Shown piece by piece: positions 1 to 18,966 of a stretch of DNA of 22,383 nt (within the stretch, counting starts at the first letter, position 1; the number at the start of each line of letters is the position of its first letter). The notes below the pieces were generated by a model. The model saw nothing but the letters and a program-made list of their open reading frames with translations. It was not told the DNA's origin and searched no databases. A program made the translations under genes and the position numbers. Origin of the DNA: Deinococcales bacterium (GTDB taxonomy: Bacteria; Deinococcota; Deinococci; Deinococcales; JAAFIG01); the NCBI GenBank assembly GCA_031414595.1, contig JANNVX010000009.1:1-22383 (forward strand), written 5' to 3'.

Positions 1-412
1 GTGGGACAATAAAATGTGCGCCTTGGGCATTTTGGTCGGTTGCATAATGAATTCCGCCGTTTCGTCCGATTCGGGTGCTGGTGTGGTTGTGTGGTTGTAA
101 AAGTACGGGTTTGACTTGAATTGTTTTGGCAGTTTCATCGAGTATTTCTAGGGTGCGGTAGTTATCGGTGTAGCCATCGGCTTTGATGGTCAGGTGATTC
201 TTTCCTGTGGGTATGCCTCGCATCAGGTAATAGCCATTTTGGTCTGTCACTGTCTCGAGTCCAAGAATGCTGACCTTGGCATTTTCTATGGCTTGGTTGG
301 TGGTGTTATCAAAGACATAGCCTTCAATGAATACAAAAGCATTGGCTTGTGGGTCTATTGCTCGAGGGGCTTCTCCTGCTCGTACCAAGAGTGCGGGGTA
401 TAGCGTGGCGCG
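1..412. repeat. Direct repeat copy 1 (partner 3297-3708)
   Basis: Offset 3296 with no gaps. 84-412 differs at only 3 positions (205, 314, 350). 28-83 is clearly more diverged. Confidence 0.97.
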
Positions 413-487
413 AGGGATGGCAAAAGACTGACCGCAGGCAGTCAGGAAGAAGAACAAGAGAAGGCTCGAGAGATAGGAAATTTGCAT
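2..487 (-). CDS. Lipoprotein, paralog of the 1311-aa toxin-like protein (5' part only; runs off the left edge)
   Basis: Not in the ORF track. Hand translation from ATG 487 gives MQISYLSSLLLFFFLTAC|GQSFAIP (lipobox LTAC), then RATLYPALLVRAGEAPRAIDPQ...GAHFIVP, which matches aa 372 onward of 886..4821. The frame is open to the window edge. Confidence 0.8.
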   Translation of the reverse strand, partial: MQISYLSSLLLFFFLTACGQSFAIPRATLYPALLVRAGEAPRAIDPQANAFVFIEGYVFDNTTNQAIENAKVSILGLETVTDQNGYYLMRGIPTGKNHLTIKADGYTDNYRTLEILDETAKTIQVKPVLLQPHNHTSTRIGRNGGIHYATDQNAQGAHFIVP

Positions 488-510
488 GGTAAGGCGCAAT
501 CTTGACTGTA

Positions 511-882
511 TTATTCGTCATTAACGGCTATAGCATCAGTTATCGCTTGATTTTGATATGGAATGCCTATAGTGATAGATTCATCTGTTCCTTGTTGAAA
601 ATGATACTCAGCTTCTGGACTATAGGTTACACATAAAATATCATTCCAAAATATGTGAATTCGACCACAAACTGGACATACAAAGATTAATCGTCCTTGA
701 TGTTGAATCTTTGTAGATTCCCCAATAATTTCATGGATAGCTGTTCGCGGATTTTCTGTGTATAAACCTTTCCTTAAAAGATGTAGGTGATTTGAGTGAC
801 TATATGAAACCAAACAATTCTCGATTGGTACAGATGAGTCTGTAAACGATTTTTGACCGCACTTACACTTAAACTTTGACAT
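511..882 (-). CDS. Small Cys-rich protein, putative immunity protein
   Basis: 123 aa with N-terminal CKCG and C-terminal CPVCGR (possible Zn site). Starts 3 nt after the stop of the toxin-like gene and is AT-rich like the toxin tip. The immunity role is inferred from position. Confidence 0.7.
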   Translation of the reverse strand: MSKFKCKCGQKSFTDSSVPIENCLVSYSHSNHLHLLRKGLYTENPRTAIHEIIGESTKIQHQGRLIFVCPVCGRIHIFWNDILCVTYSPEAEYHFQQGTDESITIGIPYQNQAITDAIAVNDE

Positions 883-885
883 GGC

Positions 886-3800
886 TCACCTATTTATGAA
901 AGTTACCCTTTCAGGATTTGGAGCTTTAGGTAATGGTTTAGGAAGAAATACGACTGTTGGCGCAGTTCCACCATTGGAAGCATTCACTAGCTGTTGAAAT
1001 GTTGGAAATCCCAAAGACTGCGCGTGGGCTTCAAGTGCTGCTGCCGTCAACGTGGTTTCATCAAGTACGACATAAACAACATTAGCTTGACTACTTTTAC
1101 GCACAATTCCACTGACTACATTATTGGGGTTAGTTGTTGTAATGCCAATAATATCAGCAGGAATACTGTTATCAAGAACCATATCAGAAACTCTTGTTGG
1201 ACTTGTTCCTCGCACTGGTGATGCAGCCGAGGATACACCATCTACACGCAATTCTATATTTCGCCCCTGTGTTCGAGCAATGTAATAAGCAGTATTCCAT
1301 TCGTACTCATAGAACTCGACACCTAGGACTCTTAAAGTGCCTCCGTTACTAAAACGAATTGTGAATCCACTACCCGGAACTCCAGTAATTGGGACTCTTG
1401 GTGAAGAGTTTGATTCTACTATTGGTTTTGCTGCCGATGCCGCAGGCTTACCTGCCCCTGAGCGCCCAATCGGGCGGGCTAACCACGGAAATTTTCTAAT
1501 GAGCAAGTCAACAGCCTCAATTCCTAGCGCCGCTACGAGGTAAGTTGCACCAATTTGTAAAGTTGAATAATTAGGGTAAACCGTATTGTAGACATACCGT
1601 GCATATTTGTCTAAACAATAATCCAAGTAAACTAAATCACCTTTACGTGCCAAGCTACCTAAGAAAGCTATATTACCGTTATTTATTGCTGTTTCTGCTT
1701 GGTAGAAAGTAAGGATAAACATTAGGTTTGCCAAAGCGTCTGCTTGTTGACAAGCTGGTGTTGTTTTATAAATACTCCGAATAGCGGTGATTTCCTGTTT
1801 GATAAAATTGGGTATCCCAAATCTAATGATTAACTTATCGATTTCGGGATTCATCTGTTGAATAGCTTTCTCGCACTCTTTAATGGGGTTTGGTTTTTGT
1901 GCTTGAAAACAAACTAAACCAGTTAAACTTTGTACTCGAATTCCACTTGAGGCATTTGAAACTGCGCTTTGGATTTTAGAAAAAGATATGCGATCACTCA
2001 AAATCTCGTCATGTTGTGCTGAAAGTGCAATACGAATAGGAAGTTGAGCGATACCATTCTCAATTGCTGCACTACCATTCACAATGACATCAGAAGCCCA
2101 ACCAGTTGAATCAAAGGAGTACCTTGTGATTGTCGTGACGTTTAGGAGTTGTCCCTTTTCATCAATTGCCTGTACGGGAATCAAAGCATCAATTTCACTT
2201 AATGCTTGTCCTTCTCGAGCAACAATATAAATACCAAGAGAATCTTGCTCTACAAAAGGTGTTTGAATGGTAGGGTCTAGTGCGTCGTCAGCAAATCTTA
2301 GATGTACAGTTGGCACTTGAAAGCCAGCCACCACATCCGCCATTGTCCTTGCCTCGAGCAACACAGGTGGTTCACTTGCTGTCCCTCGAGACTTAGCGCG
2401 AATCACAAACTCACTATTGGCTTTAGCGGGTAAATTGGTCAGTAACTTATAATCAATTCGCACACTCGAGGCATTTTGTTTAATATCAATGCGTTTGGTG
2501 ACATCTTCAGAGTTCACCAAGACTTTTAGGCTGCTTGGGTCTATGTTGGCACTCGAGAAATCCAGCAATTGGGTGGAAAGGGCGGTGGTTGTACTCGAGA
2601 TGAGAAGTTGTTTCTCGAGGTTAGTGCTTTGTGGTTTTAGGGTCGCTCCTTTGTCTACTGGGAAGGGTCTTGGGTCTGGGTTACAAGCATCATCTTGTTG
2701 TGGTTGTAATGGATTTAATGTTCCTGTTTTGGGTTTAGGCAAAATAATACACGTGGCTGGAATTTCAGGTTTAGGTACAGGCGAACCAAAGGCACTTTTT
2801 GGATTTAAGGTATAAAAACTTGGGGTCAGCGAATTCGCCCAAAAATCAATCATACCAAAGTCATCGGTGTAGCCACGGTTGGTGGGGACGATTGCTGCGG
2901 CTGTACCATCGTCGTAACGAACACAGGCAGTATAGAGAATACCGCTTGTACCACCGCCACCTTTTTTCTCTGGATACCATCCTGAACCATGACTAAAATG
3001 CAGCATTTCGATTTGTAAGAATTTCTTGCCTTGTAGACTAATAATTTTACCTTGTTGTGCTTCTTCAATCCATTCACCTGTGCTGTGGTCGTAAGTTCCT
3101 ACTTTTACGCTTGTACCTACAGGTAGGTTGTTGGTGCTAGGCAGTGGGGTGTTGTACAAAGCTGGTTTCTTAAACACCAGACCACTTGGTTCAAAATGGG
3201 CGGCACTTAAGTAGGTTTGGTCTTCGGTAAATTCTGGGGCGGTTTCTTCGGGTAATTCGGTCAGGCTGATGTAGGTGTCCTGCTCGAGTGCGTCTGGTGG
3301 GACAATAAAATGTGCGCCTTGGGAATTGTTGGGTGTGGCGTAATGAGTGCCGCCGTTGCGTCCAATTAGGGTGGCGTTATGGTTGTGTGGTTGTAAAAGT
3401 ACGGGTTTGACTTGAATTGTTTTGGCAGTTTCATCGAGTATTTCTAGGGTGCGGTAGTTATCGGTGTAGCCATCGGCTTTGATGGTCAGGTGATTCTTTC
3501 TTGTGGGTATGCCTCGCATCAGGTAATAGCCATTTTGGTCTGTCACTGTCTCGAGTCCAAGAATGCTGACCTTGGCATTTTCTATGGCTTGGTTGGTGGT
3601 GTTATCAAAAACATAGCCTTCAATGAATACAAAAGCATTGGCTTGGGGGTCTATTGCTCGAGGGGCTTCTCCTGCTCGTACCAAGAGTGCGGGGTATAGC
3701 GTGGCGCGGCTGCCGTTGGCTTGTCGGGCGATCATTCCGTAGTTGCTTGGCTCGAGTCTGGCTGGAATGGTCAGTATGGCACTGTTATTGGTTTGGCTTA

Positions 3801-4821
3801 GCACACGTAAGCGTCTGGCTTCGATGAAAAATTCGGTTTGGTGGTCAAAGTCTGTTCCGTAGACAGTCACTTGTTGTTCTTGGTCGTTATTTATGACGCT
3901 GGGACTGACTTTGTTTATGCTGAAGGTACTCTCGAGTAAGTAAGTGGGGGCTGTGCCTATCAGCAGGTTGTTGGTTCTTAAGCTATTTGGGGTGGTGCTG
4001 GTGTCGGCATCTCCGCCAATCAGCATCAGTTCACTTGCTCCGATTTGGTTGGCGCGTTGTTGGGCTTGGGTGGTGCTTTCGTCTGGGCTGCGGGTGACTC
4101 GAGTAATGTTGTCATCTGCCAGTACAAAAGTCATCACGAATTTGTAGGGGTTTAGGGTTTTGGTGGTACTTGGGTATTTGACTGCAATGGTTAGTAGTCC
4201 TGTGCTGCGTTTGGCAATTTGGCGTTGTCCGTTTAGATTTTGGGCAATATAGCCGTATTCAAGAATTTGGTCGGTCTGCCCGATGATATTGTTGTTCTTG
4301 GCGTTCTGCTCGAGATTCTGGGTTTCTTGGCTGGTGTACCCTTGGAATTGGGCGGCTTCGGGATTAACGTTTATGGCAAGTCCTTGGCGTTTCATTTCGT
4401 GGGTGGGTTTGATACTTTGGGCTATTGCAGGGTCGGTGATCAATTCACCACCAAAATTAACCATTGCTTTGATGGCTGTTCCGCCTAAACCATTGTTGGT
4501 TTGGGTGTAGGCTTGGAAACTAAGATTATTAAAATCTTGGTCTGTGGTATTGTTAATTTGGAATGTGGCGCTGAGGTAACGGGTTTTGCTGGTTTCATCC
4601 TCAAAACTCGAGACAAATTTTCGTTCAAAAGTAATGGCATTGTCCGAAAGTGCATTTTGGGTGCGTATTTTATTGGGTAAGAGTCGGGCTGTGGCAATAC
4701 CATTTAAGGAAACTTGGGCTTCGACCAGTCCCAAAATTTTTTGTACTCGAGTAATCGGCTGGGGTTGCCAGCAAGCTGCTAGTAATATAGTCAACGTCAT
4801 GATTTTAAGTAGATTCAACAT
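886..4821 (-). CDS. Large multidomain lipoprotein, putative polymorphic toxin (Ig-like, carboxypeptidase-regulatory-like, ZU5-like, C-terminal nuclease-like)
   Basis: 1311 aa. Lipobox LAAC (C17). IPT/TIG-like segment (SINKVSPS..VTVYGTDF). CarboxypepD_reg-like segment (IEGYVFD..IENAKV..TDQNGYY..ADGY). ZU5-like segment (IVPPDAL..FEPSGLVFKKP..HFS). C-terminus resembles CdiA-CT tRNase PD-(D/E)xK domains. Confidence 0.85.
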   Translation of the reverse strand: MLNLLKIMTLTILLAACWQPQPITRVQKILGLVEAQVSLNGIATARLLPNKIRTQNALSDNAITFERKFVSSFEDETSKTRYLSATFQINNTTDQDFNNLSFQAYTQTNNGLGGTAIKAMVNFGGELITDPAIAQSIKPTHEMKRQGLAINVNPEAAQFQGYTSQETQNLEQNAKNNNIIGQTDQILEYGYIAQNLNGQRQIAKRSTGLLTIAVKYPSTTKTLNPYKFVMTFVLADDNITRVTRSPDESTTQAQQRANQIGASELMLIGGDADTSTTPNSLRTNNLLIGTAPTYLLESTFSINKVSPSVINNDQEQQVTVYGTDFDHQTEFFIEARRLRVLSQTNNSAILTIPARLEPSNYGMIARQANGSRATLYPALLVRAGEAPRAIDPQANAFVFIEGYVFDNTTNQAIENAKVSILGLETVTDQNGYYLMRGIPTRKNHLTIKADGYTDNYRTLEILDETAKTIQVKPVLLQPHNHNATLIGRNGGTHYATPNNSQGAHFIVPPDALEQDTYISLTELPEETAPEFTEDQTYLSAAHFEPSGLVFKKPALYNTPLPSTNNLPVGTSVKVGTYDHSTGEWIEEAQQGKIISLQGKKFLQIEMLHFSHGSGWYPEKKGGGGTSGILYTACVRYDDGTAAAIVPTNRGYTDDFGMIDFWANSLTPSFYTLNPKSAFGSPVPKPEIPATCIILPKPKTGTLNPLQPQQDDACNPDPRPFPVDKGATLKPQSTNLEKQLLISSTTTALSTQLLDFSSANIDPSSLKVLVNSEDVTKRIDIKQNASSVRIDYKLLTNLPAKANSEFVIRAKSRGTASEPPVLLEARTMADVVAGFQVPTVHLRFADDALDPTIQTPFVEQDSLGIYIVAREGQALSEIDALIPVQAIDEKGQLLNVTTITRYSFDSTGWASDVIVNGSAAIENGIAQLPIRIALSAQHDEILSDRISFSKIQSAVSNASSGIRVQSLTGLVCFQAQKPNPIKECEKAIQQMNPEIDKLIIRFGIPNFIKQEITAIRSIYKTTPACQQADALANLMFILTFYQAETAINNGNIAFLGSLARKGDLVYLDYCLDKYARYVYNTVYPNYSTLQIGATYLVAALGIEAVDLLIRKFPWLARPIGRSGAGKPAASAAKPIVESNSSPRVPITGVPGSGFTIRFSNGGTLRVLGVEFYEYEWNTAYYIARTQGRNIELRVDGVSSAASPVRGTSPTRVSDMVLDNSIPADIIGITTTNPNNVVSGIVRKSSQANVVYVVLDETTLTAAALEAHAQSLGFPTFQQLVNASNGGTAPTVVFLPKPLPKAPNPERVTFINR
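3297..3708. repeat. Direct repeat copy 2 (inside the 1311-aa gene)
   Basis: Aligns base for base with 1-412. Homology stops abruptly at 3708/412. Confidence 0.97.
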
Positions 4822-7082
4822 TATTTCACTCCAAAAACGCGTAGCTTGCCGTTTTTTACACCGATAATCATTTTTTTACGAGTTGGGTCTAAACCTATAG
4901 TAAATATGTCATGGTCGTATCCATCTCGGTCATCATCTTGTAGCTCGATACCATTAATGCTGACATCATAATTACTGTTAGCCCGTAGGCTGCGCTCAAA
5001 GTGAATGTGGGTATTTTTGCCAAATTGGTTATTTTGCTGTTCTAAGCTGTAAATACGCAGGGTTTTATCTGTTCCACCTGCAATCAGGGCTTGGTCACTT
5101 AGCCAATCCAGACTGCGAATTGCCCCAAGTGCGCCTGAAAGTTGATGCAGCAGGTTGCCTGTGCTGGCTTCCCAGATGTAAATAATTTTATCCCAGCCGG
5201 CTGCCGCTACTTTTGTCCCGTCTGGACTCCATGCGACTGTCAGAAGTGGGGCTGCTGCTGCTAAGGTACGTTGTTCTGTACCGTCAGAATTCCAGATTTT
5301 TACGGTGGTGTCGCTGGACGCACTGGCAAAGTGGCTGCCAGTTGTATTCCACGCAACAGCGTGGACATCGGCGGTATGGCTGGTCAAGGTTTTAATTAGT
5401 ATTTTGTTGTCCGTGTCCCATAATCGAATGCTTCGATCCCATGAACCACTGACCAAGAGTGATTGTGTTGGATGCCAAGCTAAACTTCGGACGGTGCTGG
5501 TGTGTCCTTGGAGGAGTCCTTCGGAGCGTCTGGTTGTGACATTCCAGATTTCTATATCGCCTGCTTGATTGCCACTGGCAAAGAACTGGCTATTTGTATT
5601 CCAGTCTAAACTGTATACGCTGCTGTTGCCAAACCCCCAATTTTGGATCAGTCGCAGATTTGGTGCATCAAATAATTTAAGTTGTCCGTCACGTCCGCCA
5701 ATCACAAAAAGGTCGCCATTTGGACTCCATTGACTTGCATAGGTGTTGGCATAGTGCGTAAAGCGACCTTCAAAAATACTTAATTTCTCAGGCAGTTCGA
5801 TTTGGCTGCCAGTGGCTGTATTTTCTGGAATTTCAAAATTAAAGTCAAATACATTAAGGGCGACTCGAGTTGCTGGTTCATCAGCTTTAATGAAAGCAGG
5901 TACAGCAAACGCGATTTGCTGTGTATTGTGCCAGTCAAAGCAACTTGGGGTTCTAACATAAATCAGTTCATCTGGGGTTGGAAAAGCATCATAACTTCTT
6001 TCAAATTGTGTTGCAGCACTTGTTTTCAGGCTGTACTGATTAAAGCTGCTGTAACTTTCCCAATGGTCAGTAATTTTCTCGAGCAGAAAAGCTGTGGGTA
6101 TCTGACCGCCGAAATTGGTTTCTCGAGTTCCAAGGTAGACCAAACGATTTTTATTGGGGTTTATTTTGATACAAGGCGCAGGCTTACCTGCCGAAAAGGT
6201 ACTGAGTGGAATCTCGGCGGTGATCACTTTTTGAGTGGTATCTAAAATCCTGTATCGGTCTATATAATTATTTTGGTATCGAAACAAAAAACTAAAATTT
6301 GTATTGTCCAACCACTCGAGAGAGGTTATGGATTCAGATTCTAGTGCAACTTCGTAAACGGGTTCGGTTTGCTGTGTAGATAGGTCATAGAGCAAAATCG
6401 CATTTGGCGTATTGCTATTTTGTCGAGTTGTTGTGATTGCAATTTTGTTTGAATTTGGTGAAAAGTGAGCCGCATAAACAGGATTTTGAAAGTTCAGATT
6501 TGAGACAGTATTTGTGGTTAAGTCAATCAATTGATTTTGAAGATAGCGAAATATAATCTTTGTTCCGTCGGGCGACATATCGCTGGCATAAGGCAGTAAA
6601 ACTCGAGTGAACAGGTTGTTTTGTATGGAAATCGGTTTCCAAGTGAGGGTGTCGTAGACTATAAAAAAGGGAGTAATTTGATTGTTGTTATCGTATTGTT
6701 TTAACACAAACAGCTTTGTTCCGTCCAAAGACCATTTGGCTTTTAAGCACGATTCACCGATATACGAACTGATTACGTTTTTTGCCTGAAAAATAACTTT
6801 GGCTTGCTCGAGACCGTAAATGAGCAAACTGCTGCCACAAACCGCTATGGTTGCTCCATCTGGACTCCACGCCATGATATTTGCAGTTGCTATTTCTGGT
6901 GGACTCAATTTTGCAACTTCAAATCGACCCAGCGAAATAAGCTGTAGTGAACTAGGTAAACTCGCCGTCAGAATACCGTTGATGTTCGTACTGATTTGGT
7001 TCGGTAATAATTGTAGACATCCAATCAAACCAACGCTAAGCACAACAAGAAGATACCTCCAATTTGTGTTTATATTTTGCAT
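4821..7082 (-). CDS. WD40-repeat beta-propeller lipoprotein
   Basis: Canonical WD40 repeats (GHTSTVRSLAWHP..SGSWDRSIRLWD; SHTADVHAVAWN..SASSDTTVKIWN) plus a degenerate N-terminal propeller. Likely start is ATG 7082 (GGGAG upstream), giving MQNINTNWRYLLVVLSVGLIGC with lipobox LIGC. The stop overlaps the next start (TAATG). Confidence 0.9.
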   Translation of the reverse strand: MQNINTNWRYLLVVLSVGLIGCLQLLPNQISTNINGILTASLPSSLQLISLGRFEVAKLSPPEIATANIMAWSPDGATIAVCGSSLLIYGLEQAKVIFQAKNVISSYIGESCLKAKWSLDGTKLFVLKQYDNNNQITPFFIVYDTLTWKPISIQNNLFTRVLLPYASDMSPDGTKIIFRYLQNQLIDLTTNTVSNLNFQNPVYAAHFSPNSNKIAITTTRQNSNTPNAILLYDLSTQQTEPVYEVALESESITSLEWLDNTNFSFLFRYQNNYIDRYRILDTTQKVITAEIPLSTFSAGKPAPCIKINPNKNRLVYLGTRETNFGGQIPTAFLLEKITDHWESYSSFNQYSLKTSAATQFERSYDAFPTPDELIYVRTPSCFDWHNTQQIAFAVPAFIKADEPATRVALNVFDFNFEIPENTATGSQIELPEKLSIFEGRFTHYANTYASQWSPNGDLFVIGGRDGQLKLFDAPNLRLIQNWGFGNSSVYSLDWNTNSQFFASGNQAGDIEIWNVTTRRSEGLLQGHTSTVRSLAWHPTQSLLVSGSWDRSIRLWDTDNKILIKTLTSHTADVHAVAWNTTGSHFASASSDTTVKIWNSDGTEQRTLAAAAPLLTVAWSPDGTKVAAAGWDKIIYIWEASTGNLLHQLSGALGAIRSLDWLSDQALIAGGTDKTLRIYSLEQQNNQFGKNTHIHFERSLRANSNYDVSINGIELQDDDRDGYDHDIFTIGLDPTRKKMIIGVKNGKLRVFGVK

Positions 7083-7258
7083 AAGACTCCCAAAACTCGA
7101 CCTTGGCGAATATCCGAGTAGTTTAGCAACCTCTAAACACAAATACAATTGAATCTGAACTCGATAGGCAGCTTACTCTTACTTCTGTGTTTGAAATAGA
7201 CTTCTACTATCGTCACAGGAGCAAAAGATTGATGTGTCTTTTTAGTTGCCTTTATCCT

Positions 7259-9007
7259 TTAATTCACGCTGCTCGAGGCTCGAGCCAGTTCAATTGGCAC
7301 GGCGGGTGGGTCAATGCGCTCTAAGACCGTGAAACCTAGGCGTTCGGCTTCTTGCACAAAGTAATTGATGTTTTCGGTTTTGGTGGTTTCACCCAGACTG
7401 ACCCGTTCATAGCATTGGTTGGCGGCAATAATCAGGGTTTCGGCGAGACAAGCCGGTACGTTGCCTTTACCAAAATCGAGTTTGCCATCTGCCCAGCCAT
7501 TTGGGGCGGTCATTCCGCCGGGCGGTTGAACCACACCACCAGGAATTAAGCGCACACCGGGAACAGTCAGGACACTTTCGTCCACATCGGCAGGGCGACC
7601 TTCGTCGTAAATCCACGCGCCGGGTTTGACATCTTTAGCAAACACCACGGGGTTTGGGTCAGAAGTGGCGGTAAAAATTAGGTCAGCTTCTAAGCAGTCG
7701 TGTGGCTCGAGACTCGAGACAAATGTGGTGTTGGGATAGGCTTTTTCTAAGGTGGCTCGGCTTTTATCTAAACGGGTTAAGTCGCGTCCTATTAAAATCA
7801 CTTTGCCCACTTCTGGGGCAAGCATTCGCGCCATGCCAAACGCCACCACGCCATTTGCACCGACCACGGCGGCAGTTAAGTGCTTTAGTTCCTGCCCTTT
7901 ACTGCGCCAATGCTCTAAAATTTGTGGCACGGCTGCCCTAATGCTACCCGCCGTGTACGCGCCGCCATTGGTGACACTGATTTCTGGGACAGCCGCCTGT
8001 ACCTCGAGACCTTTTTTGCCAATCGTTCCCCAAAAAGCGCCCAGCCCGTAGACACTTGCGCCGAGTTCTCTTGCCAGTCTTGCGCCCTGAATCGCCCGTT
8101 TGACCGCCAATTCGGGTTCGTTCTTAAAGACTTGTGGCAGAAGTGGTCCAGTCAATAAAATGCAGCGAATCTCTTTGCCATCGGTGGTGTACATACCGCG
8201 CAATTCGCCGATTTTGAAGGGACGGACTTGTTTTCCAATCCACTCGAGTTGTGATTCAGAGATAATTTTATAATCATACAAAGGCTTAAGCCATGCAAAA
8301 CGGTCTGACTTAAACATGTACTGTGGTGCAAGTGGATGAATTATAAAAGCCGCAATCACTTGGTCATCGCGCTCCCCTGCCACATGGTGGACTTCGCCAA
8401 CCTTTGGTTCGGTCTGCTCAATAATTCGCCCAAGGTTTTCCTTAAAACGCCACAAGGCGGCGGCGAGTAAGCCAAAAACTGCCCACCTTGCACCTAGGTC
8501 AGAAGGGGAGAGCAGCACAATAAAAACCAGTGCCACCAAGCCGCCCAAAGTGCCAACTGCCACATAGCGAGTCCAGCCCAACAGCACTGCAAAAACAATT
8601 GCTGGAATTGCCGAAATCCAAAACGGCATCTCGGCAAAAATCGCTAAGCCAGCCATCATCCCAAGTAAGTAAACATTGCCACGACCACGCATCGGGTAAT
8701 ACTTTGGGAAGAAAACCGAAGGTGGATACTGATGCCCAACAAACCCAGCAAAAGCCGCAATAAACGCCAGCTCATTGCCCTCAAATGGCATGACTAACGC
8801 CACCACAATTGCACCTTTGAAGAAATCCAAAGCAAATGAAGCAATCGTCGATTCACCACCGAGTACCCGCATCGCATTTTCAAAACCAATGTTATAAGAA
8901 CTTGCCCGTAATGGATCAAAACCACGGTATTTGGCGTACCAATAACCAAGCGGTAACGCCCCAACGACATAGGCGAGTAAGAGGGTCAGTAAAATATCGA
9001 GTTGCAT
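7259..9007 (-). CDS. PlsY-like membrane domain fused to an acyl-ACP-reductase-like NAD(P)-binding domain
   Basis: The first ~200 aa are hydrophobic with PlsY hallmarks (AYVVGALP, LDFFKG, GHQYP, ENLGRI). The C-terminal part has GLGAF, TNGGAYTA, VVGANGVVA, DEGRPADV and ACLAETL, resembling aldehyde-forming acyl-ACP reductases. Confidence 0.85.
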   Translation of the reverse strand: MQLDILLTLLLAYVVGALPLGYWYAKYRGFDPLRASSYNIGFENAMRVLGGESTIASFALDFFKGAIVVALVMPFEGNELAFIAAFAGFVGHQYPPSVFFPKYYPMRGRGNVYLLGMMAGLAIFAEMPFWISAIPAIVFAVLLGWTRYVAVGTLGGLVALVFIVLLSPSDLGARWAVFGLLAAALWRFKENLGRIIEQTEPKVGEVHHVAGERDDQVIAAFIIHPLAPQYMFKSDRFAWLKPLYDYKIISESQLEWIGKQVRPFKIGELRGMYTTDGKEIRCILLTGPLLPQVFKNEPELAVKRAIQGARLARELGASVYGLGAFWGTIGKKGLEVQAAVPEISVTNGGAYTAGSIRAAVPQILEHWRSKGQELKHLTAAVVGANGVVAFGMARMLAPEVGKVILIGRDLTRLDKSRATLEKAYPNTTFVSSLEPHDCLEADLIFTATSDPNPVVFAKDVKPGAWIYDEGRPADVDESVLTVPGVRLIPGGVVQPPGGMTAPNGWADGKLDFGKGNVPACLAETLIIAANQCYERVSLGETTKTENINYFVQEAERLGFTVLERIDPPAVPIELARASSSVN

Positions 9008-12164: not shown

Positions 12165-12239
12165 GGGGGTGTAGCTCAGAGGGAGAGCGCCTGCTTTGCA
12201 AGCAGGATGTCGTGGGTTCGAATCCCTCCACCTCCACCA
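12165..12239 (+). tRNA. tRNA-Ala (TGC)
   Basis: Cloverleaf: acceptor GGGGGTG/CACCTCC with G3:U70, D stem GCTC/GAGC, anticodon stem CCTGC/GCAGG around TGC (12197-12199), TTCGAAT loop, encoded CCA. Confidence 0.98.
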
Positions 12240-12253
12240 AGTGATAGACATAG

Positions 12254-12309
12254 GAACGGCAGTCATCAGTTGACCGCCGTTCTTACATTTGACCGCAGTT
12301 TGACCGCAG
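12254..12309. repeat. Hairpin plus three TTGACCGC direct repeats (candidate tRNA terminator and integrase arm sites)
   Basis: GAACGGCAGTCA/TGACCGCCGTTC inverted repeat at 12254-12282. GTTGACCGCCG at 12269, TTTGACCGCAG at 12288 and 12299. Confidence 0.6.
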
Positions 12310-13441
12310 CAGACTTTGAGAACCCCGCTAAAGGACTGAGCATCTCTTCGATGTCGTAAATATGTGAGCGTCGTTCATCCTCGAGCAGATGCCTGTAAAT
12401 GTTCAGGGTCACAGTCGGATTTGAATGCCCCATGCGTTCACTAACCAACTCGAGTGGTGTGCCAGCCCGTAAAGCCAAAGACCCATAAGTGTGTCGTAAA
12501 TCATGGACTCTGCACGGTTTTACACCTGCTTTAACACAAAGTTTTTTCATGGCATGGTTTGGGCTGCTTGGGTTCAATGGTTTATCAGCCCCAATCAAAA
12601 AAAGCTTCTTATGCTCTGGGTGCTTATCAAAATCCCATTGCTCAGCTTGGTCAAGTAACAACTTCGCCATAGATGGAGGCAACGGAATAACTCGGTTTCT
12701 CCGTCCTTTGGTTGGACCCATTTTGCCACCACCACCGAACTTACTAAACGACTTGCTGATTTTTACGGTACTGGTTTTGAAGTCAATGTCAGCCCATTGC
12801 AAAGCCAGCGCCTCACCCTTTCGTAAACCCATATTCAAACACAAGCGTATAAAGACTTCCCAGTAATCACCTTTAACCACCGCTAAAAGCGCTGTGACTT
12901 CTTCCAACTCGAGGCTGCGCCCAATCGGTTCACTTGGTGGGGCTTGGAACTTAACGGCGGCGCATGGGTTCTTATGGATTAACTCGAGGGCAATGGCTTC
13001 GGTAAATACGCAATTTAGTCGCTCGAGTACCTTAGCTCGAGTTCTGGGTGATGCCTGGTCAAGCTCGAGTCTTTTAAGCACTTCCCGAATGTGGACTGGT
13101 TTAACGTCTTGTAATCTCAAAGCACCAATAGTCAGATCGGTTTTACCAAGCTCATATTCGTAATCCATTTTGGTTTTGCTGCTGATACCGCCGGACACTT
13201 TCATCTCGAGCCACTGCTGACCAAATGCTTTTACGGTGCGTTTATCAGGCTCGAGCAGTGTGCCGTAATTAAACTGGGTTGTTAGTTCCTCGAGTTTTCG
13301 GGCTACTTCGGCTCGAGTCTTACCATAAACACTACGGCGTTTTGGATTGCCAGCCAATGTTAAACCTACGGTTTTGCTGCCTTCCCAACGTCCATCTTTG
13401 CGTTTGCGGATGTTCCCTTCGCCTCTGCCTCGTCGTGCCAT
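12266..13441 (-). CDS. int: Tyrosine recombinase / phage integrase
   Basis: 391 aa. N-terminal RGEGNIRKRKDGRW arm-binding segment, then catalytic motifs GLRKGEALAL, KMGPTK, HDLRH, MGHS and NIY. Confidence 0.97.
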   Translation of the reverse strand: MARRGRGEGNIRKRKDGRWEGSKTVGLTLAGNPKRRSVYGKTRAEVARKLEELTTQFNYGTLLEPDKRTVKAFGQQWLEMKVSGGISSKTKMDYEYELGKTDLTIGALRLQDVKPVHIREVLKRLELDQASPRTRAKVLERLNCVFTEAIALELIHKNPCAAVKFQAPPSEPIGRSLELEEVTALLAVVKGDYWEVFIRLCLNMGLRKGEALALQWADIDFKTSTVKISKSFSKFGGGGKMGPTKGRRNRVIPLPPSMAKLLLDQAEQWDFDKHPEHKKLFLIGADKPLNPSSPNHAMKKLCVKAGVKPCRVHDLRHTYGSLALRAGTPLELVSERMGHSNPTVTLNIYRHLLEDERRSHIYDIEEMLSPLAGFSKSAAVKLRSNVRTAVN

Positions 13442-13443
13442 TG

Positions 13444-13671
13444 CTATTCCCCCTTTGGCTTATCAGCAACAGAGGCTTCGGCTTGTCGGCGTAGGAATTC
13501 TTCAACCTCAAAATCGGGAATATACCGATGCGGACGACGATTCGGCTTTTTGGGGTTGCACAAAGAACGCACATGGCGAATTTCGCCAGCGTCAAGTAGG
13601 ACATGGATTTTCTGCACACCAACCCCTACTAACTTGGCGAACTTATTGGGGCTAATGGTACGGACACTCAT
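13444..13671 (-). CDS. Excisionase-like winged-HTH protein
   Basis: 75 aa, basic (SPNKFAKLVGVGVQKIHVLLDAGEI..RYIPDFEVEEFL). Lies directly upstream of int and contains the int RBS in its last codons. Confidence 0.75.
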   Translation of the reverse strand: MSVRTISPNKFAKLVGVGVQKIHVLLDAGEIRHVRSLCNPKKPNRRPHRYIPDFEVEEFLRRQAEASVADKPKGE

Positions 13672-13737
13672 AAGGTTATTTCGGTTGTCATTGTTACCGC
13701 CTCCTATTGGTCAGGGCTTGATTGTGCATGGTGCGCT

Positions 13738-14103
13738 CTACACGGTCTCGAGAAGGTCAGCAAACAGGGCTTTGATACCAGTTCGCACAGGCTCGAGTTC
13801 TGCATGAGTTAAAGCGCCGTAACGCTCTTGAATGCGGTACACATCAATCATTTGTATCTGGTCGAGCAGTACCACGCTGGTTTCTGGTAGCACTGCACCG
13901 TCAACAATTGGATAGAGTTTCTTCCCTGCTTTAACCCAAGTCCCTTCTGTCGTGGTAAGTGGGGCAATAATTAAGCATGGGTATCGGCTTCGTCCTACGG
14001 TGTCAGGGTTGGTGATGATAATACAAGGGCGTGACCCTTCTTGCTCACGTCCTGCTGGCAAGCGTCTGGGGAGGTTTATCAGTGCAATATCTCCGAATTT
14101 CAT
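13738..14103 (-). CDS. PemK/MazF-family endoribonuclease toxin
   Basis: GDI..GREQEGSRPCIII, IAPLTT, SVVLLDQIQMID..RI...G.L pattern; 121 aa. Confidence 0.93.
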   Translation of the reverse strand: MKFGDIALINLPRRLPAGREQEGSRPCIIITNPDTVGRSRYPCLIIAPLTTTEGTWVKAGKKLYPIVDGAVLPETSVVLLDQIQMIDVYRIQERYGALTHAELEPVRTGIKALFADLLETV

Positions 14104-14522
14104 GGTTGTTCCACAAACTTACGGGTTCTTTGGTCATAACGAACAGGTGTCCCTTTACCCTTGAATGAGGCGTGCCATGCCTTGAGTTCTTCGGGCGGTA
14201 CATCTTTTTCTATTTCTGCAAGCCTATCTGCCATCGCATAGGCTGCACCGTCAAGCCATGCCTTGGTTTCGCCGTCCATTTCCTCGAGCGGTTCTTCTAT
14301 CACCTCGAGAACATCATTTATGGTTACAGCTTGCCCCGTAGCTTTTTCTAGTGCCACCATTGCACTTGCCAAAACATCTAAGTCGAGCCTAACCCGTTCC
14401 TTAGAAGGGTTTGCCAGCCCGTAAACAGTATTACGAGACAGTCCATAGCCAGCCATAGCCAACTTGTTAGGTGTTATACCGCGTTGCCTTAGCAACTCTC
14501 CAAATCGTAATTTAATTAACAC
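14100..14522 (-). CDS. Xre/Cro-C1 HTH protein with a C-terminal extension; putative antitoxin/repressor
   Basis: LRFGELLRQRGITPNKLA..GLSRNTVYGLA HTH, with an ATGA overlap into the MazF gene. Start re-called at GTG 14522, 6 nt after a TATAGT -10 box. The longer ORF-track start runs through the promoter region. Confidence 0.8.
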   Translation of the reverse strand: MLIKLRFGELLRQRGITPNKLAMAGYGLSRNTVYGLANPSKERVRLDLDVLASAMVALEKATGQAVTINDVLEVIEEPLEEMDGETKAWLDGAAYAMADRLAEIEKDVPPEELKAWHASFKGKGTPVRYDQRTRKFVEQP

Positions 14523-14528
14523 ATCATG

Positions 14529-14587
14529 ACTATACAGTATACCTACTACTATTGACAATATACCAACTATTCGGTATACTATTGTCA
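14529..14587. promoter_or_regulatory. Overlapping divergent promoters with an operator-like inverted repeat
   Basis: Plus strand: TTGACA (14552)-17-TATACT (14575). Minus strand: TTGTCA-18-TATAGT ending 6 nt before GTG 14522. Inverted repeat TGACAATA (14553-14560)/TATTGTCA (14580-14587). Confidence 0.75.
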
Positions 14588-14659
14588 CTCAAGAACGCCC
14601 GCTTCTCACGGCAAAAAGCGTTCTCGAGAATCCCAAACAAGTTGTAAGGAGTCCCAACC

Positions 14660-14938
14660 ATGATACACGCCATCACTACCCAAGTCCAAGCCACACAAGA
14701 AGCCCTCTATGACACCATGCGTAACGGCTCGAGAGTCTACCCACACGGCATTGTCCGCCGTGTATGCGTCCAAACCCCTTGTAGTGGTGACTGGTACGAA
14801 CTCACCGCACACCAAAACCAACGCGGTCAACTGACCCACATCACAAGCCGCCGTGAAGATTGCACAACCCCACAACCCGTTAGCGGCTCGAGCATCACCC
14901 GATTCATGGACGCAATCAAAGAAGAGGTGAGGGCGTGA
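14660..14938 (+). CDS. Hypothetical protein, first gene of the micro-ORF operon
   Basis: AAGGAG RBS 8 nt upstream, downstream of a near-consensus promoter; 92 aa. Confidence 0.7.
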   Translation: MIHAITTQVQATQEALYDTMRNGSRVYPHGIVRRVCVQTPCSGDWYELTAHQNQRGQLTHITSRREDCTTPQPVSGSSITRFMDAIKEEVRA

Positions 14939-15132
14939 TGCCCTCACCTCATCGCACACTGGTCAGTGTTATCTCCATCACCTCGAGCCAAGCTACAGCA
15001 ACCATAACCCTCACCAAGACCGTCACTGGACTCTGGTTACTCGTGCGGGTCGCAGACTCAGACATCCTACTCGAGATTGACCGCGAAGCTGCTAAACGCC
15101 TCGGGAACGCCTTCTTGCAGGGGTTGCTATGA
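14935..15132 (+). CDS. Hypothetical protein
   Basis: GTGA/TGATG overlap with the previous gene and a GAGG RBS. Confidence 0.6.
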   Translation: MMPSPHRTLVSVISITSSQATATITLTKTVTGLWLLVRVADSDILLEIDREAAKRLGNAFLQGLL

Positions 15133-15380
15133 CCAAACCAATTAAATTGACTGTGAGAAACCCGCATTTTTTTACGACTGCCAGCAAGAATAAATTTGTG
15201 GACACCATCCTCGAGCGTACCGCACCACATACCAACAGCATTGGTGATATTCACCGTGAGCTACCCAAGTTTAGAAAGTTGTTTCTTCTTGTCTATCTCG
15301 AGCGTTCACAAGACCGTCTCAAGGTCGCACAAGAAGTTCAGAACCTCATCCTCGAATTCGGTTACAAGGTCGCATCATGA
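15129..15380 (+). CDS. Hypothetical protein
   Basis: ATGA overlaps at both ends; 83 aa. Confidence 0.65.
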   Translation: MTKPIKLTVRNPHFFTTASKNKFVDTILERTAPHTNSIGDIHRELPKFRKLFLLVYLERSQDRLKVAQEVQNLILEFGYKVAS

Positions 15381-15538
15381 CCCGCACAATCATCAGCAAG
15401 GATGGTCAGCCAGTCAGCACCAAACTCGAGAAGGGTTTTGTTTGGCTCGAGTCTGAAAGTTTCGCCGCTCGAGTACCGCTCACCCCGTTTATTGTCACCC
15501 TCTTGGCTGCCAAGGTTCGTAAAGGAATAACCGCATGA
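15377..15538 (+). CDS. Hypothetical protein, 53 aa (not in ORF track)
   Basis: MTRTIISKDGQPVSTKLEKGFVWLESESFAARVPLTPFIVTLLAAKVRKGITA; ATGA overlaps at both ends. Confidence 0.6.
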   Translation: MTRTIISKDGQPVSTKLEKGFVWLESESFAARVPLTPFIVTLLAAKVRKGITA

Positions 15539-15696
15539 AAGACAAACCCATTCGCATTAGCCGATTGCACCGCATTGATTTAATTGTTTCCAAAGACGAT
15601 AACCGCATCATGCTTTTAATTGGCAATCGTGATTACGCCCTGACTATCCCGAACGCTAAAGCCCTAGCTGCCCAACTCCTCGAGGTCACAAAATGA
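15535..15696 (+). CDS. Hypothetical protein, 53 aa (not in ORF track)
   Basis: MKDKPIRISRLHRIDLIVSKDDNRIMLLIGNRDYALTIPNAKALAAQLLEVTK; AAAGGA RBS; ATGA overlaps at both ends. Confidence 0.65.
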   Translation: MKDKPIRISRLHRIDLIVSKDDNRIMLLIGNRDYALTIPNAKALAAQLLEVTK

Positions 15697-16016
15697 ATCA
15701 AGTCCCCACAACCACCAATGCCAGCCAGTCTTACACCGGCACAGTCACCCCAAGTGCCTATGACTTGCGAGACCATGCCGCGATTGTTGCCAGTCAAGCC
15801 AAAGGTATTTTCATGCCAGCCGAACACGCCCTCGCCCCGCTCGAGCATCCAATTATCGCGCCTAGTCTTAGTGCCGCGCTTGCTGCTGTTCAAGACCTGA
15901 ACACCATTCTGGTACGTTGTGCGGTTAGTGTAGAACCAAGTTTAACCCGTATTTGGTGCGTTCCTCGAGACCGTCTCAAGGTCGCCCAAGCCCTCGAGCG
16001 CCGTCAGCATTTGTAA
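15693..16016 (+). CDS. Hypothetical protein, last gene of the operon
   Basis: GAGG RBS and ATGA overlap; ends just before a terminator. Confidence 0.65.
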   Translation: MNQVPTTTNASQSYTGTVTPSAYDLRDHAAIVASQAKGIFMPAEHALAPLEHPIIAPSLSAALAAVQDLNTILVRCAVSVEPSLTRIWCVPRDRLKVAQALERRQHL

Positions 16017-16029
16017 CTCGAGAAAGAAG

Positions 16030-16063
16030 AAACCCGCCTTTAACTTGGGCGGGTTTTTGTTTT
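16030..16063 (+). terminator. Rho-independent terminator, probably bidirectional
   Basis: AAACCCGCC-loop-GGCGGGTTT followed by a T tract, with an A-rich tract on the left. It lies between convergent operons. Confidence 0.85.
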
Positions 16064-16065
16064 GG

Positions 16066-16257
16066 TTAATTGTCTCGAACTTCCAACAATTCCGGCGGGA
16101 TGTTATGAAAAAACGATGCAAGAAAACGCGGGTCATTGTTAGCAGCCTGCTCAGCATCTTTGCGAATGCGTTTAGCTTGCTCAGATGTGAGTGTATCAGC
16201 AGCTCGAGCCGCAGCTAATTCTTGGTGCAATTCTCGAATTTTTTGAATGTCAATCAT
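16066..16257 (-). CDS. Hypothetical protein
   Basis: 63 aa with a GAGGA RBS; stops at the terminator. Confidence 0.65.
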   Translation of the reverse strand: MIDIQKIRELHQELAAARAADTLTSEQAKRIRKDAEQAANNDPRFLASFFHNIPPELLEVRDN

Positions 16258-16281
16258 TTAATCCTCACTCGAGCCAAAAAA

Positions 16282-16488
16282 CTAACCCCAGTATTCCAAG
16301 ATTGCTTTTACATGAGCCTTATCAGATGTGTCAGATGCTTCAAATTGAATTCCGTTGTCATCTGCCAATGGTTTAACATGACCAATTTTAGAATCTAAAA
16401 TTTGGTCTGGAATACCATCAGGAAATGCCTTACATTTTCCTTGTCCTGTAAAATGTTTGCATAGCAAACACATTGGAATTTTAATCAT
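16282..16488 (-). CDS. Small phage-associated Cys/His protein (CxxCxH..CxAFPxGIP family)
   Basis: CLLCKH..CKAFPDGIP..I..H..P..DNGIQFE pattern. Start re-called at ATG 16488 after GGAGTGAGG. Confidence 0.7.
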   Translation of the reverse strand: MIKIPMCLLCKHFTGQGKCKAFPDGIPDQILDSKIGHVKPLADDNGIQFEASDTSDKAHVKAILEYWG

Positions 16489-16576
16489 GAAAACCCTCAC
16501 TCCAACAGTGTAATGAACGCCGTAGCTTTTGAATATCAACCATGATTATCTAACACCCCAAAGACTTTGGATGAAT

Positions 16577-16969
16577 TCAAGTTGTTCTTTTGGTGTTTCT
16601 GGTATGGACTTCAGCTAGTAACTTATTCCCATCTAAGGCTTGTTGTGCATAATTGGCTAACTTGGTTTGTAACTGACCTTGTAGAGCTAACTGCACCGCT
16701 TTCTCAGCCTCAAAAAGTACCCGATAAGCCCCGATGTCGGGGTCAGTTGAATCCCTAAAAGCAGGGTCATCAAGAACACAATCAATCTCTTTTACTTTTG
16801 CTTTGGATAAGTCTTCTTCTTCCTGAACCATGTCTTTGAATTTCTTTGTGTTATCAGACATGAATTTTTTTTGCTTAACATCTTCATCCATTTTCTCGGT
16901 TAGCTTCTCAAGACAACCGGCTGTAGTTGGGCGCATAGCTTGAATCGTGGCAAGTTTTGACATATTCAC
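16577..16969 (-). CDS. Hypothetical helical protein
   Basis: 130 aa with an AAGGA RBS and a GTGA overlap with the upstream gene. Confidence 0.6.
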   Translation of the reverse strand: MNMSKLATIQAMRPTTAGCLEKLTEKMDEDVKQKKFMSDNTKKFKDMVQEEEDLSKAKVKEIDCVLDDPAFRDSTDPDIGAYRVLFEAEKAVQLALQGQLQTKLANYAQQALDGNKLLAEVHTRNTKRTT

Positions 16970-17409
16970 ACTTCCTTTTGTTTTGCTGCTCTTCGCTCCA
17001 GTACGGTGCGCTGTGCGATTGCTTTGAATTCCTCTTTATCGAATTCATACGGTACTGCTGTTGCCTTTTCTAATTTGTCCACTGTTTTCAAGAGGTCTTG
17101 CGGTGTTGATGGCTTTTCAGGTTCAAACTCGAGTTCAGACATCAGTTTCTTGTGTTCATCCCAAGTTAGCCACTCCTCAACTGGTTTATCTGGTTTTGCT
17201 CGAACTGGCTTAGGCACTTCCTCGAGTCTCGCGTACATGGCGCAGGCTTGCACCACTGCATGGGCTGCTGCGATTCGGTCAGATGCAGATTGCTTGGTGT
17301 CCTCGGCAATTCCTCGAGCGCATTCTGTGGCACTAGACAGCGCCTTTAATGCCTGTTCGTGGCTCATTGGTTTGCGTCTCGAGTGCCTTGCTGTGCGGTT
17401 ACTTGCCAT
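16966..17409 (-). CDS. Hypothetical protein (true start may be ATG 17367)
   Basis: 147-aa ORF, co-oriented and coupled within the minus-strand module. Confidence 0.65.
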   Translation of the reverse strand: MASNRTARHSRRKPMSHEQALKALSSATECARGIAEDTKQSASDRIAAAHAVVQACAMYARLEEVPKPVRAKPDKPVEEWLTWDEHKKLMSELEFEPEKPSTPQDLLKTVDKLEKATAVPYEFDKEEFKAIAQRTVLERRAAKQKEV

Positions 17410-17531
17410 AATCGGTATTGTGTCACCCCCTGCTGTGCTGCGTGTTGCTTAAAGTGATGGTTTCTTGCGGCTCTTTTGCACCGCATCAATACGGCTCGAG
17501 TTTTGTATCCCCGCGTTATCAGTCTCGAGCC

Positions 17532-18371: not shown

Positions 18372-18425
18372 GATATTCCCCTTGTTTTCTTTTGCTGTGG
18401 TTGTGTTGCTCTTTTGCCGTGCTAC

Positions 18426-18462
18426 TTACCCCGCGTTATCCATCTCGAGTAACGCGGGGTAA
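18426..18462. repeat. Perfect 13-bp inverted repeat (hairpin)
   Basis: TTACCCCGCGTTA-11 nt-TAACGCGGGGTAA directly after the 18464 stop, with no U tract. Confidence 0.85.
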
Positions 18463-18463
18463 C

Positions 18464-18913: not shown

Positions 18914-18966
18914 GGTTATTTCTCCTTTTTTGTTTCCTCGAGTTTCGCGGTGCGGTCTTGGTGGGA

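Follow-up and report, generated by a model that had tools for sequence, protein, structure and literature searches.

A probable lipid-anchored polymorphic toxin locus with a predicted ZU5-like self-cleaving domain in a Deinococcales genome

What is the function of a lipoprotein of 1311 amino acids (aa) that keeps its body in common with relatives and ends in a tip of foreign composition? The gene in question belongs to a locus on the minus strand of positions 1-7148 of the window, the whole stretch analysed, which covers positions 1 to 22,383 of contig C9 in a Deinococcales assembly (4.49 Mb, 120 contigs, genome GC 0.472), window position 1 being the start of the contig. According to the list of open reading frames (ORFs), the locus consists of four consecutive ORFs, encoding in minus-strand order a WD40 lipoprotein, the 1311-aa lipoprotein, a 123-aa Cys-rich protein and a second lipoprotein. 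The locus probably specifies a Sec-exported, lipid-anchored polymorphic toxin of a Deinococcales and environmental family, and this reading, which a preliminary description of the DNA had proposed, is supported mostly via the relatives of the large protein.

Polymorphic toxins shape bacterial kin recognition and competition, and to our knowledge the routes of delivery elucidated so far come almost all from Proteobacteria, Firmicutes, Bacteroidota and myxobacteria. The Deinococcota possess an unusual diderm envelope, and the locus sits in a little-studied bacterial group. If the toxin reading is true, the family gives the Deinococcota their own lipoprotein-based delivery route, with built-in self-cleavage and two unexplained accessory genes. 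It is also a source of unclassified material, encompassing tip clusters, putative Zn-ribbon immunity proteins and an N-terminal domain of 283 aa. The features of the locus are collected in Table 1.

Table 1. Features of the locus in the window, layout of the two paralogous loci and position of the linked cytochrome
Feature	Coordinates	Strand	Basis
WD40 lipoprotein, two beta-propeller halves	4821..7082	-	ORF list; ATG 7082 likely start
1311-aa polymorphic lipoprotein, toxin candidate	886..4821	-	ORF; conserved body and variable tip
Signal peptide with lipobox LLAAC, aa 1-17	4771..4821	-	Sequence reading
N-terminal domain, aa 18-300, lineage-specific lipoprotein module	3922..4770	-	Copy count and model
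IPT/TIG domain, aa 301-360	3742..3921	-	Pfam PF01833, E 6.5e-4, 20.1 bits vs cut-off 20.9
CarboxypepD_reg-like beta-sandwich, aa 400-470	3412..3624	-	PF13715 39.9 bits, PF13620 37.7 bits, both above cut-off
ZU5-like predicted autoproteolytic domain, aa 472-619	2965..3408	-	Profile A2, Pfam ZU5
His608-Phe609-Ser610, predicted self-cleavage site HF/S	2992..3000	-	Translation IEMLHFSHGSG
Conserved stalk, aa 620-977	1891..2964	-	Homology to paralogs and relatives up to aa ~933-978
Helical, partly hydrophobic segment, aa 978-1120	1462..1890	-	At position of relatives' pre-toxin region
Linker and unique tip, aa 1121-1311, presumed toxin domain	889..1461	-	Position, composition
123-aa Cys-rich cytoplasmic protein, candidate immunity gene	511..882	-	ORF; position
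5' part of second, shorter lipoprotein gene	2..499	-	ORF of 166 aa, open at 3' end
Recombination tract common to both lipoprotein genes	1..413 = copy of 3297..3709	.	DNA and protein comparison
C54 locus, in order: WD40 lipoprotein (665 aa), big lipoprotein (1257 aa), 114-aa membrane protein, 120-aa ORF, multiheme cytochrome			
C26 locus, in order: WD40 lipoprotein (681 aa), big lipoprotein (1387 aa), 104-aa Cys-rich gene, 488-aa ORF, 142-aa Cys-rich gene (related to the 104-aa gene), 108-aa fragment, multiheme cytochrome			
Multiheme cytochrome	L001:8855-10294, L002:793-2256, and six loci in other genomes		

Variable tips and the small genes behind them

The four proteins were compared with the rest of the assembly by tblastn, ORF maps and BLASTP, revealing two further loci of the same build in the source genome, on contigs C54 and C26. 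The window protein aligns with its C54 counterpart over aa 4-977 (aa 6-1039 there, 36%, BLASTP) and with its C26 counterpart over aa 291-933. Only the bodies align, the C-termini of the three proteins being unrelated. The same pattern appears within the genus, where the C54 protein and that of genome G006 are 62% identical up to aa 1028 and 1046, respectively, and unrelated past there.

A word-index homolog search with the whole 1311-aa protein returned only the protein itself. Body profile A1, searched in 251 Deinococcales genomes, matches 11 of them in four families, and a profile of the ZU5-like segment collected 50 database homologs of 312-1970 aa. The bearers are Deinococcales metagenome-assembled genomes and a Deinococcota isolate, in agreement with the host group guessed earlier, with environmental and other database proteins in addition; two homologs come from complete genomes of cultured strains, namely the chromosome of Deinococcota bacterium DY0809b and a Deinococcus metallilatus protein. 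Tips, taken as the last 200 aa, fall into seven classes among 13 Deinococcales proteins. The 45 database homologs in which 500 aa or more follow the HF motif described below form 18 tip clusters, nine of them singletons including the window protein; for most of the 18, the precomputed lists show no Pfam toxin family. Families of the RHS type were found in no Pfam scan of the window protein, its paralogs or its relatives.

Several relatives end in recognisable toxin modules. Database homologs P0038 and P0039 carry PF07591, which we take to be the pretoxin HINT family, together with PF14412 and a QAHHLIPG motif at the end, and P0017 carries PF13930 (Endonuclea_NS_2). The cited portions of PMC8546572 name PF14412 as the AHH nuclease family. 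The tip in G006 matches Tox-GHH with 25.4 bits against a cut-off of 25 (Pfam) and is followed by two tandem SUKH-1/SMI1_KNR4 genes scoring 28.4 and 25.0 bits against a cut-off of 25.4. The tip in G021 aligns with that of G006, shows a faint Tox-GHH match (E 0.22) and precedes a SUKH-1 gene of 34.5 bits, with a second tip-end and SUKH copy beyond the cytochrome, so that copies flank the cytochrome on both sides. Zhang et al. 2012 include the combination of Tox-GHH and Imm-SUKH among their pairings (PMC3482391, in the sections used here).

A second association involves tip class A (C26, the 488-aa ORF C26_488 and G011), where small proteins of the pattern CPxC...GGGG...CxxC follow the tip in four of four cases, the four Zn-ribbon proteins being related to one another. 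The pre-toxin region of classes A and B looks similar to PT-TG, for which Pfam gave no match at E ≤ 1, and membership of that family is not claimed.

Tips thus vary on kept bodies, and the downstream small genes track the tip class, Tox-GHH with SUKH-1 at two loci and class A with the Zn-ribbon proteins in all four cases; therefore the homolog comparison proposed in the preliminary description favours a polymorphic toxin family. The contrary pattern, an invariant C-terminus with no dedicated small gene, was looked for and not found.

Conserved body and predicted autoproteolytic domain

The N-terminus of the 1311-aa protein, MLNLLKIMTLTILLAAC (MLNLL...LLAAC), presents the lipobox LAAC; such calls were read directly from the translated sequence against the consensus [LVI][ASTVI][GAS]C. 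Of the 50 database homologs, 35 likewise show a permissive lipobox pattern within their first 80 aa. The N-terminal domain that follows (about 283 aa) is present in 18 copies in the source genome, 17 of them elsewhere at L042-L057, and in many copies in relatives; when aa 1-977 were searched in 41 relatives, 21 genomes gave matches, mostly to this domain alone. Its copies follow lipoboxes and precede subtilase, Exo_endo_phos with LTD, or Endonuclea_NS_2 with PKD, further fusion partners being FG-GAP, RCC1 and SBBP propellers and a cadherin-like domain. Because the copies front such varied partners, the domain is a general lipoprotein module of the lineage and not a toxin-specific leader. A model built from a 29-sequence alignment is mostly beta (predicted local distance difference test, pLDDT, 90.9; predicted template modelling score, pTM, 0.90), with no Foldseek match in the PDB at E ≤ 0.001. 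VIA-align placed it closest to white spot syndrome virus envelope proteins (Z 5.9, root-mean-square deviation 4.2 Å, 118 aligned) and also matched the SadB lipoprotein (Z 4.5); both matches lie within the tool's stated background, and no fold is assigned.

The body continues with the TIG domain, likewise found in paralogs and relatives by Pfam, and the CarboxypepD_reg-like sandwich. The segment after these, aa 472-619, aligns well across homologs (alignment A2, nine homologs). When profile A2 was searched against PDB sequences, the five best matches were all ZU5 domains, from ankyrin-2 (E 0.002 and 0.0041), ZO-1 (E 0.0086 and 0.011) and ankyrin-3 (E 0.038), the next-ranked rows being antibody fragments at higher E. 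Pfam ZU5 matches eight of the nine A2 members (best E 5.5e-4). A TPS match in one of the nine segments (E 0.03) was taken as noise.

Near the end of this segment lies the window motif LHFSHG (aa 607-612). The tripeptide HF[S/T] recurs in 48 of the 50 database homologs, the other two being short fragments that end before the motif, and in all 12 Deinococcales loci or fragments covering the region. Cleavage of PIDD and Nup98 takes place at an HFS motif. The term self-cleaving, used for this protein in the preliminary description, is consistent with the ZU5-like domain and the motif together. The cited portions of PMC3482391 assign ZU5 the role of a processing autopeptidase, placed N-proximally, in polymorphic toxins as well as in other, non-toxin, surface proteins. 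The beta stalk behind it (aa 620-977) matches no Pfam family at E ≤ 0.1.

A ZU5 segment of the same type was also seen outside the family. A Myxococcales metagenome-assembled genome (L033:7710-11132) encodes a 1140-aa lipoprotein with lipobox LAAC in which the domain follows the signal peptide, displays the motifs GLVFKKPA and EHFSEGG and is succeeded by long Cys-rich repeats; the domain is therefore not confined to the Deinococcota.

The makeup of the body bears on one alternative, in which the big protein is no toxin and acts instead as a variable adhesin on the cell surface or as a lipoprotein for enzyme display, its C-terminal variation reflecting binding specificity or phase/antigenic variation via the downstream copies and its small gene being unrelated or a chaperone. 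TIG and CarboxypepD_reg are common adhesin modules, the N-terminal domain is common to many ordinary secreted enzymes and propeller proteins, ZU5 is not restricted to toxins (PMC3482391, same portions), and neither the window tip nor its small gene exceeds a toxin or immunity family threshold. Relatives ending in Tox-GHH, PF07591 with AHH, or Endonuclea_NS_2 nonetheless speak for toxins, as do SUKH immunity genes lying exactly at the position of the window's small gene. Small cytoplasmic genes that co-vary with tip class are, moreover, unexpected for adhesins, making this alternative unlikely.

The window's tip, its small gene and the spare cassettes

Past the stalk, aa 978-1110 form six helices in a low-confidence model (pLDDT 55-77), with a hydrophobic stretch at aa 1086-1110 and strands further on. 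Three homologs align into aa ~978-1064, and none beyond aa ~1064 of the 1311-aa protein. For aa 978-1311, HMMER found no homolog other than the protein itself at E ≤ 0.001 among 1.84 billion representatives, and a comparison of the tip with PDB sequences gave none up to E 10. A low-GC tip, listed in the preliminary description among the marks of polymorphic toxin loci, is borne out by the GC content at third codon positions (GC3). This is 0.485 for the N-terminal domain, against 0.258 over the final 163 codons of the big gene and 0.226 for the 123-aa gene. This foreign composition of tip and small gene counts in favour of a polymorphic toxin.

The 123-aa protein contains six Cys, with two knuckles (CxC and CPVC), lacks a signal peptide and occupies the same position as the SUKH and Zn-ribbon genes in related loci. 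A word-index search with it found only itself, and its ESM look-alikes are unnamed clusters. Complex prediction for tip aa 1125-1311 with the 123-aa protein scored 0.30 against a mark of 0.34, speaking neither for nor against binding. Because of position, composition and analogy to the related loci, the tip is taken as the toxin and the 123-aa gene as its immunity gene, both roles being presumed.

The gene behind them encodes the beginning of a second lipoprotein with its own signal peptide (...LFFFLTAC, lipobox LTAC), joining the body at aa 372. As reported in the preliminary description, it reuses the middle region, 129 of 137 residues (94%) being identical between its aa 30-166 and aa 372-508 of the big protein. 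Window position 1 being the contig start, the truncation of this gene stems from the assembly and is no biological feature. Its continuation was sought in the assembly, where only a 45-aa stalk remnant on contig C82, not a continuation, was found. At the DNA level, positions 1-300 match 3297-3596 at 94%; the repeat has a sharp 5' edge, three mismatches in its first ~330 nucleotides (nt) and divergence growing toward the contig end. The near-identity over ~330 nt implies recent exchange.

Spare cassettes of this kind lie downstream in all three loci of the source genome, in keeping with the repeated cassettes anticipated for a polymorphic toxin. C26_488 matches aa 950-1384 of the C26 big protein at 61% identity and has its own small gene, the 120-aa ORF of C54 is 85% identical to aa 807-899 of the C54 big protein, more fragments occur in C26 and C54, and G011 has three further cassettes. 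Cassette signal peptides are alike across genera, e.g. ...SVLITLFLFTSPSFAQNC and ...SILIMLFFFVSPALARDC. The point of fusion with the body varies among the cassettes. In the window copy it lies at aa 372, ahead of both the CarboxypepD_reg and the ZU5 domain; in others it lies behind ZU5, and the products of these would be exported as if already cut.

Partial copies of this sort might also be taken as signs of decay, the locus being a remnant with an inactive relic as tip and a pseudogene fragment as downstream copy. The stray stalk fragment on C82 (45 aa, 87% identity) and the second gene, visible only in part, would suit such a history. Against it, all four frames are open and tightly coupled, the near-identical repeat points to recent exchange, and the second gene ends where the assembly breaks at a repeat, leaving decay as a highly improbable explanation. 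The C82 fragment (source genome G000, L003:1115-1378) corresponds to aa 752-796 of the big protein and lies downstream of a secreted thioredoxin/DsbA-like gene (L003:86-1066).

Envelope partners, known systems and neighbouring DNA

The four genes form a tightly coupled run, as the preliminary description stated. The WD40 stop overlaps the start of the 1311-aa gene (TAATG), 3 nt separate the stop of the latter from the ATG of the 123-aa gene, and about 11-23 nt lie between the stop of the 123-aa gene and the start of the second lipoprotein gene. A promoter and terminator scan of window 1-7400 gave counts equal to the shuffle level. Pfam and NCBIfam scans of all four locus proteins returned only TIG, CarboxypepD_reg and WD40 families; RHS, FHA/TPS, PAAR, VgrG, WXG/LXG, MafB and CdiB-type families, which had been called absent in the preliminary description, were indeed not among the matches.

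The WD40 ORF spans 4821..7148 (775 aa) from a TTG at 7148, with the ATG at 7082 as likely start; from there the N-terminus reads MQNINTNWRYLLVVLSVGLIGC (MQNIN...LIGC), with lipobox LIGC. Pfam WD40 scores 154.5 bits over aa ~460-775, and the N-terminal half shows weak PD40/WD40-type matches only. A homologous WD40 lipoprotein gene, sought by BLASTP (E ≤ 1e-5) within the fetched flanks of related loci, stands directly upstream in nine of 12 loci (C9, C54, C26, G011, G006, G017, G001, G007 and G107). In G107 (L037:12443-19052), four extra WD40/propeller genes between the big lipoprotein gene and the cytochrome were seen, an expansion of the partner gene. The double-propeller lipoprotein is proposed as an accessory for display, release or target binding.

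A second recurrent partner is a cytochrome of ~480 aa that bears a hydrophobic anchor at its N-terminus, contains five CxxCH motifs and closes the locus in eight cases (C54, C26, G011, G006, G021, G217, G159 and G107), with the genes past it varying between loci. The contig ends before any cytochrome position in the window, G001 and G007. In G017, no cytochrome lies in the 3.4 kb downstream, and two copies stand at contig starts elsewhere in that genome; judged by eye, the region downstream of the G017 toxin locus (L018:224-1679) seems to contain an AbiEi/AbiEii-type pair. Of the same 251 genomes, 12 carry the cytochrome, 11 the body and 10 both; the mismatches, G001, G003 and G016, are all assemblies of 110-980 contigs. 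NCBIfam indicates weak similarity to ExtKL, NrfH and NapC-type proteins, far below the curated cut-offs. No literature joining "polymorphic toxin" and "multiheme cytochrome" was found in the one paper library searched, subscription journals lying outside it.

This linkage invites a different account of the cluster, in which propeller, big lipoprotein and pentaheme cytochrome constitute an envelope redox module, e.g. for extracellular electron transfer, with the big protein as scaffold and toxin ends as a secondary acquisition of some members. The patchy distribution that cytochrome and stalk have in common, the closing position in eight loci and the faint ExtKL/NrfH/NapC-type resemblance would suit it. 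Neither the big nor the WD40 protein contains CxxCH, all cytochrome matches fall far under the curated cut-offs, and toxin/immunity modules extend to the most distant loci, including the GHH-like tip with SUKH of G021, which belongs to another family; a redox core is accordingly very unlikely.

Several observations weigh against the polymorphic toxin itself. The tip exceeds no toxin-family threshold, its Pfam CdiA_C match (PF18451, aa 1213-1274) reaching E 0.033 and 14.8 bits against a cut-off of 26.6. For a profile comparison, genuine PF18451 members were sought in five genomes, with none above the cut-off and none in controls. ESM look-alikes of the tip reach 0.90, a level attained by shuffled sequences 4-10 times in 100; 23% of the members of these clusters carry CdiA_C_tRNase or CdiA_C, making a CdiA-CT-like nuclease activity a weak lead. 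The single-sequence model of the tip has a pLDDT of 44.8, and Foldseek returned nothing at E ≤ 0.001, a search made meaningless by that low value. The 123-aa protein has no Pfam match and no recognisable immunity family. The window's ZU5-like copy scores 17.7 bits, under the Pfam cut-off of 21, and we infer self-cleavage between Phe609 and Ser610 from the ZU5-like domain and the HF[S/T] motif. The spare cassettes, bearing their own signal peptides, differ from classical silent orphans. The WD40 gene is not adjacent in three of the 12 loci (G021, G217 and G159). Lastly, the cytochrome fits no known toxin mechanism, so that the cluster as a whole may serve a wider purpose than the toxin reading allows; the strict co-occurrence of cytochrome and toxin body is the main oddity left by a polymorphic toxin.

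For the polymorphic toxin, the following course is envisaged. After lipidation, the 1311-aa protein would be displayed at the cell surface, where the ZU5-like domain would cut between Phe609 and Ser610, giving a lipid-anchored N-fragment and a C-fragment of ~700 aa that carries the stalk, the helical entry/pre-toxin segment and the toxin domain. The C-fragment would be held or released for delivery to neighbour cells, with the 123-aa Zn-ribbon-like protein neutralising the toxin in the producer and its kin. The downstream gene may represent a spare or alternative toxin form, its ends swapped by recombination, and the co-translated double-propeller WD40 lipoprotein may assist display, release or target binding.

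A bolder proposal, which we regard as unlikely, is an undescribed multi-component toxin display and delivery system of the diderm Deinococcota, in which the ZU5-processed lipoprotein would require two dedicated envelope partners, the propeller and the cytochrome, the latter being inherited together with the toxin. Under this proposal the cytochrome could be a redox-coupled export or release factor, or an entry receptor linked to the weapon for kin-type targeting, and the cassettes, each bringing its own signal peptide, would supply "pre-cut" forms of the toxin, secreted independently.

The preliminary description had been unable to match the locus to any named system. That statement does not hold, as the locus fits the Sec-dependent, ZU5-processed polymorphic toxin class of Zhang et al. 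2012 as set out in the cited portions of PMC3482391. The locus has in common with this class the signal peptide or lipobox, a conserved N-region, a predicted N-proximal ZU5-type autopeptidase, variable C-termini presumed to be toxic, an adjacent candidate immunity gene and standalone cassettes. According to the same portions, ZU5 frequently occurs with beta-propellers, and Amoebophilus APD1 and APD2 follow a lipobox. Unlike the class as described there, the window locus has no RHS repeats or SpvB/TcdB context, its beta-propeller is a separate lipoprotein gene and a multiheme cytochrome is linked. The supplement of PMC3482391 lists ZU5-bearing proteins and may already include members of this family. 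A literature search, with subscription journals and that supplement outside its range, found no description of this body or its Deinococcales range.

Parallels also exist with SitA/SitI (with SitB) of myxobacteria. In the cited portions of PMC8546572 and PMC5562445, SitA proteins are lipoprotein toxins with a conserved N-terminal "escort domain" of ~375 aa and modular C-terminal nucleases; the former adds an operonic immunity gene, many loci per genome, sitB directly upstream in some families and dependence of delivery on TraAB outer-membrane exchange (PMC8546572). One SitA3 toxin domain is PF18451, the family of the faint match on the window tip (PMC8546572, same portions). The resemblance, covering lipoprotein, modular ends, immunity gene and upstream accessory, is architectural only: no sequence relation was detected, SitA proteins are shorter, and ZU5 goes unmentioned for SitA in those portions.

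The envelope-delivered systems of other groups differ further. MafB of Neisseria, likewise a Sec-exported polymorphic toxin of a MafB/MafA/MafI set, needs for secretion the outer-membrane partner MafA, encoded on the same islands as mafB (cited portions of PMC7738311). Here, no MafB-N (DUF1020) appeared in the Pfam scan, and the double beta-propeller partner is unrelated to MafA as far as tested. The recently defined Gram-positive S8-PTS (Li, Tan and Zhang 2022), as presented in the cited portions of PMC9424270, is Sec-dependent and has a conserved N-domain, many toxin ends, immunity genes and a third gene. It resembles the present locus in its multi-component build, signal peptide, conserved N-terminal domain, range of toxin ends, immunity genes and dedicated extra gene. 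It differs in that an S8 peptidase releases the toxin there (PMC9424270, same portions), whereas processing here is predicted to be built in (ZU5, and PF07591 in some members), and the extra genes here are the WD40 lipoprotein and the cytochrome.

The locus has no RHS/YD repeats or Rhs core in Pfam scans of the window protein, paralogs and relatives, unlike Rhs/YD toxins. In contact-dependent growth inhibition (CDI), CdiA has a long conserved body and a variable C-terminal toxin, with immunity encoded downstream and orphan cdiA-CT/cdiI modules sharing a recombination tract. The present locus likewise shows a long conserved body, a variable end with a candidate immunity gene downstream and orphan-type modules with a recombination tract. 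Unlike CDI, TPS, FHA repeats and a CdiB transporter are missing from the scan of the four proteins, export is by lipobox, and the orphans have their own signal peptides.

Beyond the locus, window 7259-9007 (minus strand) encodes a 582-aa fusion whose aa 11-195 are a PlsY-type glycerol-3-phosphate acyltransferase and whose C-terminal domain resembles acyl-ACP reductase, the PigE N-terminal region and Shikimate_DH-type NAD(P) domains. Window 12165-22383 looks like a mobile element integrated at a tRNA. A tRNA-Ala gene (12165-12239, plus strand) adjoins a tyrosine integrase gene (12266-13441, minus strand), followed by a MazF/PemK toxin gene (13738-14103), a helix-turn-helix gene and family-less ORFs, including one for an 884-aa protein (19562-22216), with a weak portal-like match at 18464-18913 as the sole PHROG match of that region.

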